NCBI GenBank assembly: GCA_051362555.1
Contig: CM120646.1
Coordinates: 22,940,001 to 23,004,000 of the forward strand
DNA: 64,000 nt
Origin: Lingula anatina
Lineage: Eukaryota; Animalia; Brachiopoda
Reading direction: 5' to 3'
The notes under the pieces: model-generated
Told to the model about the DNA's origin: nothing
The model's input: only the letters and a program-made list of their open reading frames with translations
Database searches by the model: none
Shown here: in pieces, positions 22,455 through 39,800 of the stretch
How positions within the stretch are numbered: the first letter of the stretch is position 1
Layout: every line of letters begins with the position of its first letter
Position numbers and translations under genes: made by a program

Positions 22455-24470
22455 ATCCAGTACTTCTGTAGCTAGGACTAAGCCTTTAGCTAGTGTGTAA
22501 AACTTATATTTAATTTGGCTAAAACACATAGTACTGTAGAGATAATCGAAAATGTCTGCAAATCTAACTCAATTTTTAATCTTAAAACTTATTTGGATAT
22601 AAATTAAGTTACATGGAAACACTAGCAATAATGCATTCACTGTTCTAGTAAGCATGTTAAGGAAACAAATAGATCATGGCACTACTGTATGCCAAGAGGT
22701 TAATATCTACATTTCTCCACTCACTTTAGCATCGGGTTTTTGGCCAAATGCTCTAAAAATTCTTTGACTTAGTTGAATCAAACTATAAAATTTTTAGCTG
22801 TCTTTGCACTGATTTAAGTAAAAAGATTTAAAAAAAAAAAATCACTCAAAGTATCTCTGTAGTCAGTACTTGACTTAAAAAAATCTTAAAGTGCATTCAG
22901 TATGATTTTATAATTTACCAATATTTCATGAAAGTATCAGTTATAGCCAAAATCATTTATATCTTGTATTGAAACAGTTGAGAAAAAAATTTTAAAAATC
23001 AAAATACATAGTGCTGTGTTTCATACTGAGTCACTTGCCTTTTCAAAATTTACCAGAAATGGCAAAGTCATTCTGATAATGCAGGTAAGTTTTTAATAAG
23101 ACAAACTGAAAATATGAAATTGTCTGTTGTTTTTTATGTTTAGTACATATCCTGCTTAGCAACTTACTAGCATCTTCATGAGAGAAAGAAAATTTTTAGT
23201 AAATTTTCTTATTCATTTATTATTTTCCAGCAAAAAAATTTACAGCCAAAAAATCCTGGATAGGATACCTTTACTAATAAACTGTGCAACTGAGTGTTTA
23301 TTGATCAGATCAGGGAAAATAAATGAATGTCATAAGCAGACAAGCAGCAGTGCCTCAGATCAGTTCAGACATGTGTTTGCTTTTATAACTCTGTCACTAC
23401 AACATTTGATGACAGCCACACATCCCTCACTGCCCCTCTCACTGACACAGAGACCAACCCCTGCAAAAATATTGTCTCACTGAACACTCACTTATGGTTC
23501 TCAATCTGTCCTAGAACCAAAGCTTTTAGTAAACTATCATAGCAGTAAATTATAATGCAGCGCAGAGAAGTGGGTGGTTATATACTATAAAATTTGTCAT
23601 TTTTCTCTCAATCAACATCCATTTATTAACAAATGTGCTTTCCCACAGTGGTATATTTTAAAATATATTTCTGTAATACATACCAAAGTATTTTCAAAAA
23701 TAAAAAAGACAGAAAGAAGAAAAGACAGAAAAACAAAAAGAAGGAAAGAAATGAAATACTTAAATATAAATAAATCAGGAATGATTACCTTTTATCATCA
23801 GCTGTACAGAGATAATCTCTTCTGTTCCTCTCACAGTCACCCTACATCTATACTCTCCCTCATCTCCTGGACATTGTGTCTGCTGGATATTAAGTGTGGC
23901 AGTTTTGGTACTCTCCGACAATGTCCCAGATAGTCTGTCCTTATCGGGGCTGGAGCTTAACTGATCACCATCAGGAAATTGTTGAAGTATTTGTTCAGTT
24001 CCCCTGAACCAGGCAACAACAACTAGTCTTTCTGATGCTGTATATGCGCACTGCAATGTTGTTGTCTCTCCAGGTATGCCAACAACTGTAGTTTGGGTTA
24101 TAATTCCAGAAACTAAAAACATAAAAGGAATATAATGAAATATTACAGTGGTATTTTAAACTTGGATTCTTAAATTATAATGCCATTATTCACATTCTAC
24201 CACATCTACTGTTTTACATTTAAATGAACACGCTTCTAACCTAAGACTCCAGCAAAGCCAAGGCTTAAGCGCAAACGTACGTTTTACTTCAAAATTAAAT
24301 CCTTCATATTTTCTAGTACTAATAATTAAAAGAAGGCGTTGATAAGAAATGTCAAATCCACCATTGCATATATACATTAACTCTAACTTACCTGCTAACA
24401 GCAATATTACGATGACCAGCAACGGCTCAAAATTGAATTTAGATCGACTTGATGATAAACAAACCGCCAT
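19427..24470 (-). CDS. Gene A, exons 1-5: single-pass Ig-superfamily receptor (signal peptide, V-type Ig, C2-like Ig, I-like Ig, TM)
   Basis: Exons 24470-24392 ([26 protein letters not shown]), 24112-23789 (V: LQC..W..DEGEYRC), 20854-20561 (Ig2: [14 protein letters not shown]), 20086-19763 (Ig3: [20 protein letters not shown]) and 19582-19427 ([32 protein letters not shown]). All have AG/GT boundaries and phase-1 introns, one domain per exon, and the splice positions are conserved in paralogues B and C. Confidence 0.9.
22378..22451. repeat. (TA)n microsatellite
   Basis: Direct observation. Further (TA)n at 27404-27441 and 27543-27568; (TG)n/(G)n at 14802-14855; (CT)n(CA)n at 15129-15193 and 21960-22037; poly-T at 61913-61961. 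Confidence 0.95.
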
Positions 24471-24667
24471 TTGTCAACAGGAGCGTCGTTTACAAATTAA
24501 CAAATAAAATTAAGTTTGATCAGTTTCCAGCTCTCAATTCAGTGTAACAAACTAAATCTTGTAATATTCACTAGCTCCAGCATAAGTGATAGATCCTGTT
24601 AGTCCTTAAACTGTTGGGAGGTTCACACGGAAATAAACAGTGTGACCCGACTTCAACCTATTTTATG

Positions 24668-24685
24668 CAATAGATGGCGCTAAAG
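24668..24685 (+). promoter_or_regulatory. CTCF-like motif about 200 bp upstream of the gene A ATG; paralogous motif at 37008-37025
   Basis: CAATAGATGGCGCTA and (reverse) TACCAGATGGCGCCA resemble the bilaterian CTCF core. Motif match only. Confidence 0.35.
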
Positions 24686-36436: not shown

Positions 36437-36819
36437 TTTTCAACTGTGGAAACCCAGTCTTCTACAAATAAAATTAGAGATTGATCAGTTCCCAATTCCC
36501 CATACAGTGTTTAAAACTAAATCCCATAATGTTCATTGGTTCCAGAATAAGCGATACATCCTGTTAGTCATTTGCCTCCATTTTTTTTTTCTTTTTTTGC
36601 ACTCGGTTCGTGTATAGCAGAGGAAGTCCGAAAACTGAGACAGTTTAAAATTAATCATATAGCTCACACGGAAATGAACACAATCTACATATAACAATCA
36701 TCTTTTCATGATCTAACTAAAAATAATTTGCCAGGTTTGATGATTATGTGATTTGGGAGCATATTCTAGCTGTGTTTTGGACGGTGAGAAAGTTTTAAAA
36801 GTGGGCGTAACTTATTCAC

Positions 36820-39800
36820 AAGAAATGTACTTCTTTTCCAAGAAGATACAAAACCCAATTGACAAAAATTTATACAAATTACCAATGACACCTTAAAAAT
36901 GAGTAAAAATACAAGAAATGAAGCTATGAAAAAGTATTTTAGCATTCCCAGGGGAAATACTGCGACATGCTTTGTGAAAAAAGTGTCTGGCTAGCTTGCC
37001 TTATCCTGTGGCGCCATCTGGTACTGCATTAAAATAGGTTGAAGCAGGGTCTGAAATTGCTTGTCCTCAGTGGGTCATGTTTTCAGTGGGTAGGTGCCCG
37101 CTAATGCTAAAGAGTTTATACAGTATGTAATCGCCAATAGAAAAAAATACATCTCCAATTTTTCTAGCAGCTTTTTGGGTTGCATTCTAAATCTTGTAAA
37201 TATATACTGTACTGTGAAAACTTGGGCGCCTACCAAGCTTCACAAAAGTTCACATACAAGTAATTTAAAAAATACTGGGACAAAATTTTACACTACACTA
37301 AGACTTGGACATAATTATGTCCAAGACTAAGATGATGGTGCTCTACTAAAACGGGCATACCTAGATGAATTAATACACGTTGATGTACTGTTAAACACTA
37401 AAGCCATAGTATATCATGGAGTACGTGCCAATTCAAGGAGTAAAGGCAATTTATGTAGAAGTTTGGTGTGTGTGCTGGTTAATTTGTGGGTTAAGTGGTT
37501 AATGTGGTTTATATTTCCAAAGGGTATGCTGTTTTTTGCTTTTTTTTCAGCATATTTTATCCACATTTTCTAGATATCTACATGTATTTTACCTGTAGTG
37601 CATAATTTAAAACTAATGGTGATTGTTACTGACAAATATATCTGTATTGCTTGGAGACAGTTCCCACAGATATTTAGATGGATCTATCCCCCTGGGGAGT
37701 CTCACTTGATTGCTGTCAGCTTAACCAGCTTAAATGTCTGCCTCGCCTATTTAAAGCTGTAAGGGGGTAATTAACTTGTGTGCACGCTCGGCTCCCAGAA
37801 GCTGACAGCAATTTAGCATGAACCCCCAGGGAGTTAGGCCGATCCAGATGGATCGATCATAAACTGTGGAAACCCAGTCTTGGAGTGTAGTGTGATATCG
37901 ATGACTATGTTTTGCTGTTAGTATGGGAGATGTCATGTTGAGCCTTTCTGTAAAGAAAAAAAGAGAAAAGATTTCCTTAAAGAGTTTTTGTTGTAATATA
38001 TTAGACAAATCATCACAGCAGTACGTAGTTGTAATTGTTGTTGTTGCCAATGTTGATACACGCAGTTGAGGTTGTATTCAGAAGACACCTGCAACAGTGA
38101 TTATAATCTGTTAAATAAGCATTATGTAATATTGCATTAAATTGATAAAAAATAATGTTTTGTGTAGTGCCACTATACAAAATTCTTAAAAGGAAAACTG
38201 TGTTCCTTGTTATTTTTTAACTTACAAGAATGATTGACATACAGCTCAAATTGGCAAACCAGCTTGACTGGATAATTTTTCTTTCTTGTTATCTTTCTTG
38301 TTATCTTGTTTTTGTATTATTGCTATTATATCTCTGTACATTTTCACCGGCTCATTCTGGTGTAGAAAGTATGAATAAAGCATATAAACTATTTAGCCTC
38401 AGCAGGCTCCAACCCACTGAAGACATACATGACCCACTGAGGATCGACAGGCATTTTGGGTACTGTTGGGTTGAAGTCAGGTCACAATACATGTTTATTT
38501 CAATTTGAACCTCCTAACAGTTTAATGACTATTAGTAACAGGATTTATCACTTATGCTGGAATTAGTGAACATTATAGGATTTAGTTTGCTACACTAGAT
38601 TGAGAGTTTGGAACTGATCAAACGCTAACTTTATTTGTTAATTTGCAGACGACATTCCTGTTGAAAAATGGCTGTTTGTTGTTTATCATCAAGTCAATCT
38701 AAATTCAATTTTGAACCATTGTTTGTCATCGTACTCTTGCTGTTAGCAGGTAAGTTAGAGTTAATATGCAGGGAATAATGAATGTAGCATATCGCACTAA
38801 TGTGATCTTTTCAAATTGTAATTAGTAAAGGATTTAACTGCAGAAGAAAAATATGCAGTGCTAATTGAATTACTAATACATATTGCCCTGATTTGCTGGA
38901 GTTTCAGGTAAGAAGTGGATGCATGTTTAAATAATGTAATATTGATTTTAGAATTCAGGGATTTGTTTTACAACTCACCCAGACTTCTTCCCAAGCAGTC
39001 TTAGGGAAAACGTTGATATAAAAATTTGGGTAGGATCAACAGTTTAAAAGTTTGGTGGTACCAGTTCAAACTTTTACCCATCCTGTGCATAGGATCAGCA
39101 AAGGCCAAAAGTTTTGGCCATTTCTGATGACCATTCGATTTCAAGGATTCAGATTTTTGTCAGGTACTTTTAAGTTACTTTGCTCTTTACCATGAGGAAA
39201 AAAAGTTTACAGTGTACATAACATATTTTTTTAAGTTACCAAATCTTAAATACCTTTTTCTTATATTTCAAATATATACCTTTTATGTTTCTAGTTTCTG
39301 GAAATGGATCACAAAATACAGTTGTTGGCATACCTGGAGAAACAACAACATTGCAGTGCACATATTCAGCATCAGGAAGATTAAATGATGTCAGCTGGTT
39401 CAAGGGCACTCAGCAACTACTTTCACAATATCGAGATGGTGAACAATTTCTCTTTGGCCCTGATAAGGCCAGACTATCTGGGACATTGTCAGAAAGTACC
39501 AAAACTTCTACACTTAATATCCAGCAGACACAATGTCCAGGAGATGAGGGACAGTATAGGTGTGAGGTGAATGTGAGAGGAGCACCAGAAGAGATAAATT
39601 TACTACAGCTGATGATAAAAGGTGATCAATCATGATTTATTTATTTATATTTCATTTCTTCCTGACTTTCTTTTTCTCTTTCTGTCTCTCTTTATTTACT
39701 TCTGAAAACATTTAACTCTTTATTATTTTTCATTTGACTCCCATTAAAAAGCTTTGGGAGTCGTCATGACTCTCAAAATAAAAAGCCTAGGGGAAACCCT

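Follow-up and report, generated by a model that had tools for sequence, protein, structure and literature searches.

V-domain divergence on near-identical immunoglobulin stalks in a gene cluster of the brachiopod Lingula anatina

A 64,000-nt stretch of the Lingula anatina (Brachiopoda) genome (GCA_051362555.1, CM120646.1, positions 22,940,001-23,004,000, forward strand; hereafter the window) carries three copies, genes A (-), B (-) and C (+), of an exon set encoding an N-terminal V-set domain (V) and two further immunoglobulin domains (Ig2 and Ig3, together the stalk). The V domains differ from one another at 31 of 108 positions in each of the pairs A-B, A-C and B-C (29% of residues), whereas Ig2 differs at 4/97 in each pair and Ig3 at 2/107 (A-B) or 6/107 (A-C, B-C), and predicted structures support a clustering of the variable V residues on the GFCC'C'' sheet and the loops that correspond to antibody complementarity-determining regions (CDRs).

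The interpretation that we favor, with modest confidence, is that the V faces of these three clustered paralogues grew apart once the genes had duplicated, at or above roughly the neutral rate, toward different partners. Duplication would have given three neighboring copies with a nectin-like V / C2-set / Ig ectodomain; the binding face of each copy's V would then have changed at roughly the neutral rate or above it, in a divergence directed to different partners, with selection for distinct specificity rather than mere tolerance; purifying selection, probably together with exon-level conversion, would hold Ig2, Ig3 and the D-E-F framework of V alike; and the different tails of A, B and C would give opposing or decoy outputs.

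Variation in V and its position on the fold

The exon sets were located from stop-to-stop open reading frames (ORFs) and tblastn, with exon limits set from AG/GT sites and phase-1 frames and backed in part by RNA-seq joints. All Ig exons of A, B and C are phase-1 with limits at AG/GT sites, and Pfam recognizes in each copy a V-set, then a CD80-like C2-set_2, then an Ig_3/I-set domain. An earlier reading of this DNA (the original prediction) had counted 30 substitutions plus one gap in V, 4 changes in Ig2 and 2 in Ig3 between A and B, figures that we reproduce to the residue (31/108, 4/97, 2/107); V identity among the three is 71-72%, and the excess of differences in V over Ig2+Ig3 is strong by Fisher's test (p=7e-11 for A-B, 1.6e-8 for A-C and B-C). 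Within V, the A-B differences number 2/21 up to and including the first cysteine (Cys1), 17/33 from the next residue to the PDK motif, 3/35 in the segment PDK..YRC and 9/19 (8 plus the gap) after the F-strand cysteine (Cys2), the last three counts exactly as predicted. Gene C has its changes in these segments too (17/33, 3 or 1/35, and 7-8/19), and both this claim and the peptides quoted for it were borne out. Comparing the two variable with the two conserved segments, which were picked after the data had been seen, gives p=2e-6, 1e-4 and 2e-5 in the three pairs.

The near-identity of Ig2 and Ig3 is peculiar to the A/B/C trio. A RefSeq paralogue on another contig, F (P0003), has 29, 27 and 29 V differences from window A, B and C, respectively, along with 8-9 in Ig2 and 23, 23 and 21 in Ig3, so that the original prediction's statement that Ig2 and Ig3 barely change applies to A, B and C and fails for F. 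The V divergence with F fits either saturation or old V lineages.

The V domain follows a canonical fold. Pfam V-set (PF07686) scores are 40.2, 39.9 and 38.9 bits for A, B and C against a cutoff of 26, and the core is invariant (Cys21, Trp34 and Tyr87-x-Cys89, the Cys-Trp-Cys core plus YxC motif). Two AlphaFold models, one of P0004 from a 7-sequence alignment (V-domain predicted local distance difference test, pLDDT, 71-87) and one, by AF2, of V_B alone from 3 sequences (mean pLDDT 82.7, predicted template-modeling score 0.77), both contain strands A, B, C, C', C'', D, E, F and G, and the V-only model matches nanobodies (VHH) and CD96 D1 with template-modeling scores (TM-scores) of 0.60-0.78. 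The closest sequence alignment of V is to lambda light-chain V domains (E=3e-5); on an antibody V domain the conserved PDK..YRC segment corresponds to framework region (FR) 3, and the variable segments correspond to CDR1/FR2/CDR2 and CDR3/FR4.

Comparison of A, B, C and F places variable sites at 22/35 positions of the GFCC'C'' strands (7/7 in C') and 9/15 of the BC, C'C'' and FG loops, against 4/27 of the ABED strands and 7/27 of the other loops. The check set beforehand, whether the variable residues gather on one surface, found them clustered on the predicted fold: 32/52 on the GFCC'C'' sheet plus CDR-like loops versus 14/56 elsewhere (p=2e-4). V-set adhesion and receptor proteins (nectins, CADMs, SIRP, antibodies) usually function through the GFCC'C'' face, and by analogy with these we infer that this is the binding face of the A, B and C domains as well.

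A third conserved cysteine accompanies the canonical pair in V (alignment column 80, ..QTQCPGDEG.., in A, B, C and F), and Ig2 has one likewise (..DGCTYNG.., in A, B, C, F, D and G); these could form an interdomain or intermolecular disulfide, in a model whose Ig2 has pLDDT <50.

Substitution rates, exon ages and competing explanations

Rates were computed pairwise by the Nei-Gojobori method (NG86). In V, non-synonymous divergence (dN) is 0.161-0.167, synonymous divergence (dS) 0.21-0.37 and their ratio omega 0.43-0.79; in Ig2, dN is 0.018 and dS 0.11-0.19, and in Ig3 0.008-0.025 and 0.12-0.18. Relative to the stalk, dN in V is thus raised 7-20 fold and dS 1.2-2.4 fold, which answers another check set beforehand: synonymous divergence in V (0.21-0.37 against 0.11-0.19) is not as raised as non-synonymous divergence (0.16 against 0.008-0.025). 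The ratio of non-synonymous to synonymous differences (Nd:Sd) departs between V and Ig2+Ig3 in all three pairs (p=0.0018, 0.0046, 0.0005), and V dS does not differ significantly from Ig2+Ig3 dS in A-C (p=0.17) or B-C (p=0.57). The PDK..Cys2 framework has an omega of 0.13-0.15, and the V exon is therefore under selection and functional rather than decaying.

For A and C the introns offer a neutral yardstick: they align over 60-80% of their length with a pooled mismatch of 345/2600 (0.133), which is equaled by both the synonymous change in Ig2+Ig3 (19/140) and the non-synonymous change in whole V (36/246), and exceeded by the non-synonymous change on the face (26/120, or 0.217; two-sided p=0.014). 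A global MAFFT alignment of the A and C V regions was dropped as a yardstick after it forced non-homologous intron stretches together (p=0.3-0.5). Measured against dS pooled over the three exons, face omega is 1.19, 1.35 and 1.64 (one-sided p 0.34, 0.16 and 0.039).

A number of results weigh against selection for distinct partners. No pairwise test among A, B and C gives an omega significantly above 1: with its own dS the structure-defined face reaches 0.48, 0.70 and 1.09, and with pooled dS only B-C attains p=0.039, uncorrected for three pairs. The rate tests draw on three nucleotide sequences only (A, B and C), the intron yardstick on BLAST-alignable stretches only, so that it underestimates neutral divergence, and the face was assigned by predicted strand and not by measured solvent exposure. 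V sites with three states stand to those with two as 9:32, which by hand calculation fits roughly neutral change over many sites. In A-B, V dS exceeds Ig2+Ig3 dS (22/76 vs 19/139, p=0.010), and dS is raised inside the variable V segments (0.27-0.53 vs 0.16-0.26 in the framework); because of these two observations, part of the V signal could stem from older or imported V sequence or from a local mutational effect, and V may be partly older in the A-B comparison. The V of F is no further from A, B and C than their mutual 31 differences, despite its 21-23 differences in Ig3. Comparison of the window with RefSeq yields 0/107 (A), 0/108 (B) and 3/108 (C) differences in V, 3, 0 and 2 in Ig2 and 2, 0 and 0 in Ig3, making V no more polymorphic than the stalk. 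We also know of no ligand, tissue or immune role for this family. Positive selection on V is accordingly plausible, to our minds slightly better than an even proposition, and unproven; of the original prediction's diversifying selection on binding specificity, the excess of non-synonymous change and its clustering on the face stand, and an omega above 1 does not.

Two rival explanations, each rather unlikely but still live, would account for the contrast between V and stalk. Under relaxed constraint, without selection for new specificity, the GFCC'C'' face and loops would tolerate drift at the neutral rate while D-E-F, Ig2 and Ig3 stay constrained, as would suit a face omega of 0.48-1.09 that is never significantly above 1, a 9:32 site ratio compatible with an omega near 1 and the conservative nature of about a third to half of the face changes (BLOSUM62 score above 0 in 4-11 of 18-25). 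Complete relaxation of a usually functional face would, however, be odd with five copies intact and two of them, B and C, expressed; each V type is unchanged or nearly so across the two assemblies; and A-C face change exceeds alignable-intron divergence. The other explanation, an age mosaic produced by concerted evolution, likewise seems doubtful to us as a full account: the V exons would be old, separate lineages, Ig2 and Ig3 would have been repeatedly converted, and the contrast would reflect depth of coalescence more than selection acting differently on V. It draws on observations that point to exchange of sequence between the stalk exons. In introns 2 and 3, B has no alignable sequence in common with A or C, homology stopping 4-19 nt past the Ig2 and Ig3 exons, and yet these exons are 94-96% identical at the nucleotide level with a dS of only 0.12-0.19; the nearest pair is A-C for Ig2 and A-B for Ig3, and V forms a star; the 3 Ig2 residues that set RefSeq A apart from window A all change toward C states; and the transmembrane exon of B is only 83% identical to its RefSeq counterpart (P0001) next to identical Ig exons, which we counted in the same direction. 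On these sequence comparisons, exon-level gene conversion between paralogues probably helps to keep the stalk alike. An age mosaic would further explain the higher V dS in A-B, the V of F lying as far from A, B and C as they lie from one another with an Ig3 about 4-10 times further, the 1, 6 and 4 differences in V, Ig2 and Ig3 between a second RefSeq isoform (X3) and B, and a run of 7 variable V sites common to F and A (p=0.019, uncorrected).

Other observations speak against differences in age as the whole cause. The excess of V dS over stalk dS is only 1.2-2.4 fold, and not significant in two pairs, and the Nd:Sd shift goes beyond what age alone explains. In A-C, stalk dS equals intron divergence, so that conversion is unneeded for that pair. 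The block of signal exon and intron 1 just upstream of V aligns in all three pairs with a divergence (K) of 0.11-0.19, as similar as the stalk exons, and V therefore does not lie in an obviously older block. Mosaic run tests on the A, B and C nucleotides gave no signal in V or Ig2 (p above 0.2) and borderline values in Ig3 (runs p=0.051; longest A=C run p=0.048, uncorrected).

We consider it very improbable that the V exon is highly polymorphic per locus in the population, in the manner of allorecognition or major histocompatibility complex genes. Window and RefSeq represent different assemblies or haplotypes, since some exons differ, and across these two assemblies, the only ones in the allelic comparison, the V variation lies between paralogues and allelic hypervariability is not indicated. 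The DNA contigs of four runs, aligned at 88% likeness and dominated by repeats, bear on polymorphism only through single contigs; one from a 2015 sample (X2) is, among the matches listed, identical to the window over 23870-24477. The original prediction's phrase that V is hypervariable on one face thus keeps its location and loses its hypervariability, with 0-3 V differences between assemblies. One observation could favor a divergent allele: in RNA run X11, at >=97% likeness, Ig2 and Ig3 of A and B are covered to a depth of 13-31 and V_A, V_B and V_C to <0.3, and abundant transcripts must therefore carry another V, >3% different, on a near-identical stalk. Ig2/Ig3 transcripts are abundant in run X17 too. 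The source of that V could be a further paralogue or a divergent allele, and further paralogues explain it equally well in a family of at least seven members, with up to nine contigs on one transmembrane exon among the matches listed.

A more far-reaching possibility, to which we give little credence at present, is that the cluster forms an immune-type receptor system on an antibody-like V with a germline-diversified CDR face, in which one stalk is joined to an inhibitory tail with immunoreceptor tyrosine-based inhibitory and switch motifs (ITIM/ITSM), to a kinase in place of an adaptor bearing an activation motif (ITAM), and to a secreted decoy. It would be an independent lophotrochozoan counterpart of SIRP, CEACAM and NITR, its stalk kept uniform by exon-level, possibly cDNA-mediated, conversion. 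A contribution of V-targeted mutation is a longer shot still. Lingula is reported to have AID-like deaminases (PMC5956068). An AID-like substitution excess in V was rejected as a candidate: the germline spectrum has no excess of C>T/G>A, which account for 20/75 changes.

The three genes and their tails

The span 23789..39621 named by the original prediction runs from the 3' end of exon V_A to the 3' end of exon V_C, and the Ig2/Ig3 exons of A (19763-20854) and C (41914-43597) fall outside it. RNA-seq joints connect signal and V exons in B and C, Ig2 and Ig3 in A and B, and the exons flanking five kinase introns in B; read strandedness fits the gene orientations, and spliced reads cover V_B and V_C in runs X14 and X15. 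Reads on Ig2 and Ig3 are not assignable among paralogues at 97% likeness. A frequent joint from B Ig2 to A Ig3 (34568>20086) was rejected as trans-splicing or a hybrid transcript: all three genes have the same first ~78 nt of Ig3, and the reads extend <=74 nt there.

Gene A (- strand) begins with a signal-peptide exon at 24392..24470, with its ATG at 24470 and a following GTAAGT donor, and continues with the V-set exon at 23789..24112 (324 nt, phase 1/1, AG/GT limits, Pfam V-set E=4.4e-10), the Ig2 exon (C2-set_2) at 20561..20854 and the Ig3 exon (Ig_3/I-set) at 19763..20086, the latter two found by Pfam and linked by RNA joint 20561/20086. A transmembrane exon at 19428..19589 (tblastn, limits approximate) precedes tail exons at 12613-12660 (a weak match) and 9260-9361 and the last coding exon at 3664..3795, where 43/44 residues are identical to RefSeq P0005 by tblastn. 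The V_A protein is identical to that of P0005, and the RefSeq counterpart of A is a 484-residue 'cell adhesion molecule 3-like' protein. The last exon encodes IVYADL and TEYAEI, whose tyrosines lie 26 residues apart and which we take to fit the ITIM and ITSM consensus, respectively; the protein ends in ...EIKRV. Related motifs, PQYAEI and PLYAEI, stand directly before the kinase domain in B and in a second kinase gene, D, and the last exon of A may be related, judging by these motifs, to the juxtamembrane exon of the kinase genes.

Gene B (- strand) comprises a signal-peptide exon at 36358..36436 (RNA joint 36358/35918, 15 reads in X14 and 4 in X15), a 327-nt V-set exon at 35592..35918 (Pfam; 100% identical to P0001), an Ig2 exon at 34568..34861 and an Ig3 exon at 33640..33963 (both Pfam, joined by RNA at 34568/33963), a transmembrane exon at 33206..33367 (limits approximate, 83% identical to P0001, to which all three Ig exons are 100% identical), and juxtamembrane and tyrosine-kinase exons of FGFR/RET class at 28066..32239 (tblastn 94-100%; Pfam PK_Tyr_Ser-Thr), with RNA joints at 30511/30260, 30073/29877, 29755/29227, 29114/28634 and 28538/28238. 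The kinase is intact in its G-loop, VAVK-type lysine, HRDLAARN and DFG motifs, and its nearest matches in the PDB, FGFR1 (E=7.8e-79) and RET (E=7e-78), are about equal; by sequence its class is FGFR/RET and not specifically FGFR. The RefSeq counterpart, P0001, a 785-residue 'FGFR3 isoform X4 [Lingula anatina]', owes its name to this closeness to FGFR1 and RET.

RefSeq isoforms X4 (P0001) and X3 (P0002) have identical kinase halves and differ in signal, V, Ig2, Ig3 and transmembrane parts. Upstream of the B kinase the window has one such ectodomain block only, and X3 may stem from the second haplotype, assembled in tandem, or from a copy-number variant. Intron 2 of B repeats, over 55 nt and with 80% identity, part of the Ig2 acceptor region and exon start, at 34898-34952 (-), ~40 nt upstream of the true Ig2 exon.

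Gene C (+ strand) has a signal-peptide exon at 38668..38749 (RNA joint 38749/39295, 8 and 4 reads), a V-set exon at 39295..39621 and an Ig2 exon at 41914..42207 (both with AG/GT limits and Pfam matches), and an Ig3 exon at 43274..43617, of which the Ig3-homologous part extends to 43597. This last exon has no GT donor at the homologous place and reads through SSPATWW until it meets the TAA at 43615-43617, which leaves no transmembrane exon downstream; the product is probably secreted, as the gene structure suggests, and the RefSeq counterpart, P0004 ('cell adhesion molecule 3-like', 348 residues), likewise stops after Ig3. At 43585-43617, ~14 nt after Ig3 match the start of the transmembrane exon of A and B (..TLS|SPAT..) with no intron between, and RefSeq C ends in ..SPATGS where window C has SSPATWW*. 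The 3' end of C looks like a precise loss of the intron between Ig3 and transmembrane exon followed by truncation, an intron loss that could hint at cDNA-mediated recombination in the family. Genes B and C lie head-to-head with their start codons 2.2 kb apart (36436 - and 38668 +), which suggests that they share a divergent promoter region. Both are covered in RNA runs X14 and X15 and neither in the other two runs.

Related receptor systems and the surrounding locus

The order of V-set, CD80-like C2-set and Ig/I-set domains followed by a single transmembrane segment is that of nectins and CADMs, and nectin-1 D1-D3 (4fmf, E=1.5e-10) is the best Foldseek match of the Lingula ectodomain model; TM-scores reach only 0.27-0.31, a consequence of the poorly modeled Ig2 and hinges. 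Nectin paralogues choose their specific pairing partners through the GFCC'C'' face of D1. Orthology to nectins or CADMs is absent, the identity of the Lingula V to anything outside Lingula being <=35%: among 1.84 billion representative sequences no close V relative was found outside the Lingula cluster, one 50%-identity cluster (Lingula P0003) being close and the next match 35% identical. The Lingula tails also differ, carrying ITIM/ITSM motifs, a kinase or nothing, without a recognizable C-terminal motif of nectin/CADM type (PDZ- or 4.1-binding). The B kinase domain resembles FGFR and RET with intact motifs, but the ectodomain is V-set / C2-set_2 / Ig_3 and not the three I-set domains plus acid box that define FGFRs; V joins Ig2 directly (..IKVEPSE..) with no acidic stretch between.

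Among invertebrate systems the Alr complex of Hydractinia and a sponge receptor tyrosine kinase (RTK) invite comparison. Alr is a cluster of genes with a V-set domain 1, two Ig domains and a transmembrane segment and with ITAM/ITIM tails in several members (PMC9546547), and in this architecture and its motif-bearing tails it resembles the Lingula cluster; Alr1 and Alr2, however, are highly polymorphic self-markers with a non-canonical V, whereas the Lingula V is canonical and has no excess polymorphism in two assemblies, and Lingula is solitary. The RTK of Geodia cydonium also has a sequence-variable Ig-like ectodomain, its polymorphic sites reportedly spread evenly over both Ig domains in loops and strands (PMC11926128), in contrast to the Lingula variation, which lies between paralogues and is confined to one V sheet. 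Paired families of the immunoglobulin superfamily (SIRP alpha/beta/gamma, CEACAM1/3, KIR, LILR, teleost NITR) share with Lingula the clustering of recent duplicates with similar ectodomains and differing signaling ends, as well as a fast-changing N-terminal V and gene conversion between members, which in Lingula is probable; the CEACAM genes are reviewed in PMC5112662 and PMC2832619. The Lingula cluster has paralogues with an ITIM/ITSM-like tail (A) and an intact kinase (B), which might signal in opposition. Classical pairs, by contrast, share their ligand-binding domain, whereas V_A and V_B are 31/108 apart and V is the least similar part; the Lingula kinase arm is an intrinsic FGFR/RET-class kinase without a charged transmembrane residue through which to pair with an ITAM adaptor; and the genes belong to a brachiopod.

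The Lingula cluster is a member of none of these systems (nectin/CADM, paired families, Alr, sponge RTK), because its V lacks close relatives beyond Lingula, the V of the pair is not shared and the activating arm is a kinase. We found no description of the A/B/C family in the literature on Lingula immunoglobulins, Lingula or brachiopod RTK expansion, or invertebrate paired and ITIM receptors. Vertebrate antigen receptors draw on canonical V-set domains that vary at CDR positions, and to our knowledge few such cases are well documented in invertebrates (amphioxus VCBPs, snail FREPs, Hydractinia Alr). A brachiopod family that couples a V domain of this sort to ITIM/ITSM, kinase and secreted forms would indicate that paired-receptor logic can arise outside vertebrates with an RTK as activating arm, and would make available a manageable handful of natural V variants, all on the same stalk, for the study of binding by the GFCC'C'' face; if only relaxed constraint and gene conversion are at work, it would offer a clean case of exon-specific concerted evolution in a lophotrochozoan multigene family.

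Protein searches place at least seven members of the family in Lingula, with RefSeq proteins that match A, B and C exactly or nearly and P0007 as a further member. On the transmembrane exon of B (33202-33375) up to nine distinct contigs from one DNA sample align at >=88% likeness with several alternative letters, among the matches listed; the family is therefore larger than its seven RefSeq members and this exon is widely shared. A search by length for ORFs of about V-exon size found none.

The window is AT-rich eukaryotic DNA (GC 0.32-0.40), in which Pfam recognizes tyrosine-kinase exons downstream of B and, at 59-63.5 kb, those of gene D. The juxtamembrane and kinase exons of D (59292..63546, -; RefSeq P0006 match) are the only ones within the window, its ectodomain lying past the window end. 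In RefSeq, D is modeled with a fibronectin type III segment in the place of the V domain of other members, either a domain swap or a gene-model artefact, and its Ig3 is only ~80% identical to that of A, B and C. Between C and D, two adjoining ORFs at 55050-56502 (-) match reverse transcriptase (RVT_1, E about 1e-16), indicating by their sequence a probable LINE-like retroelement. An endonuclease-like fragment lies at 13358-13729 (+), and high-copy repeats in the DNA runs cover many intron stretches of the window.

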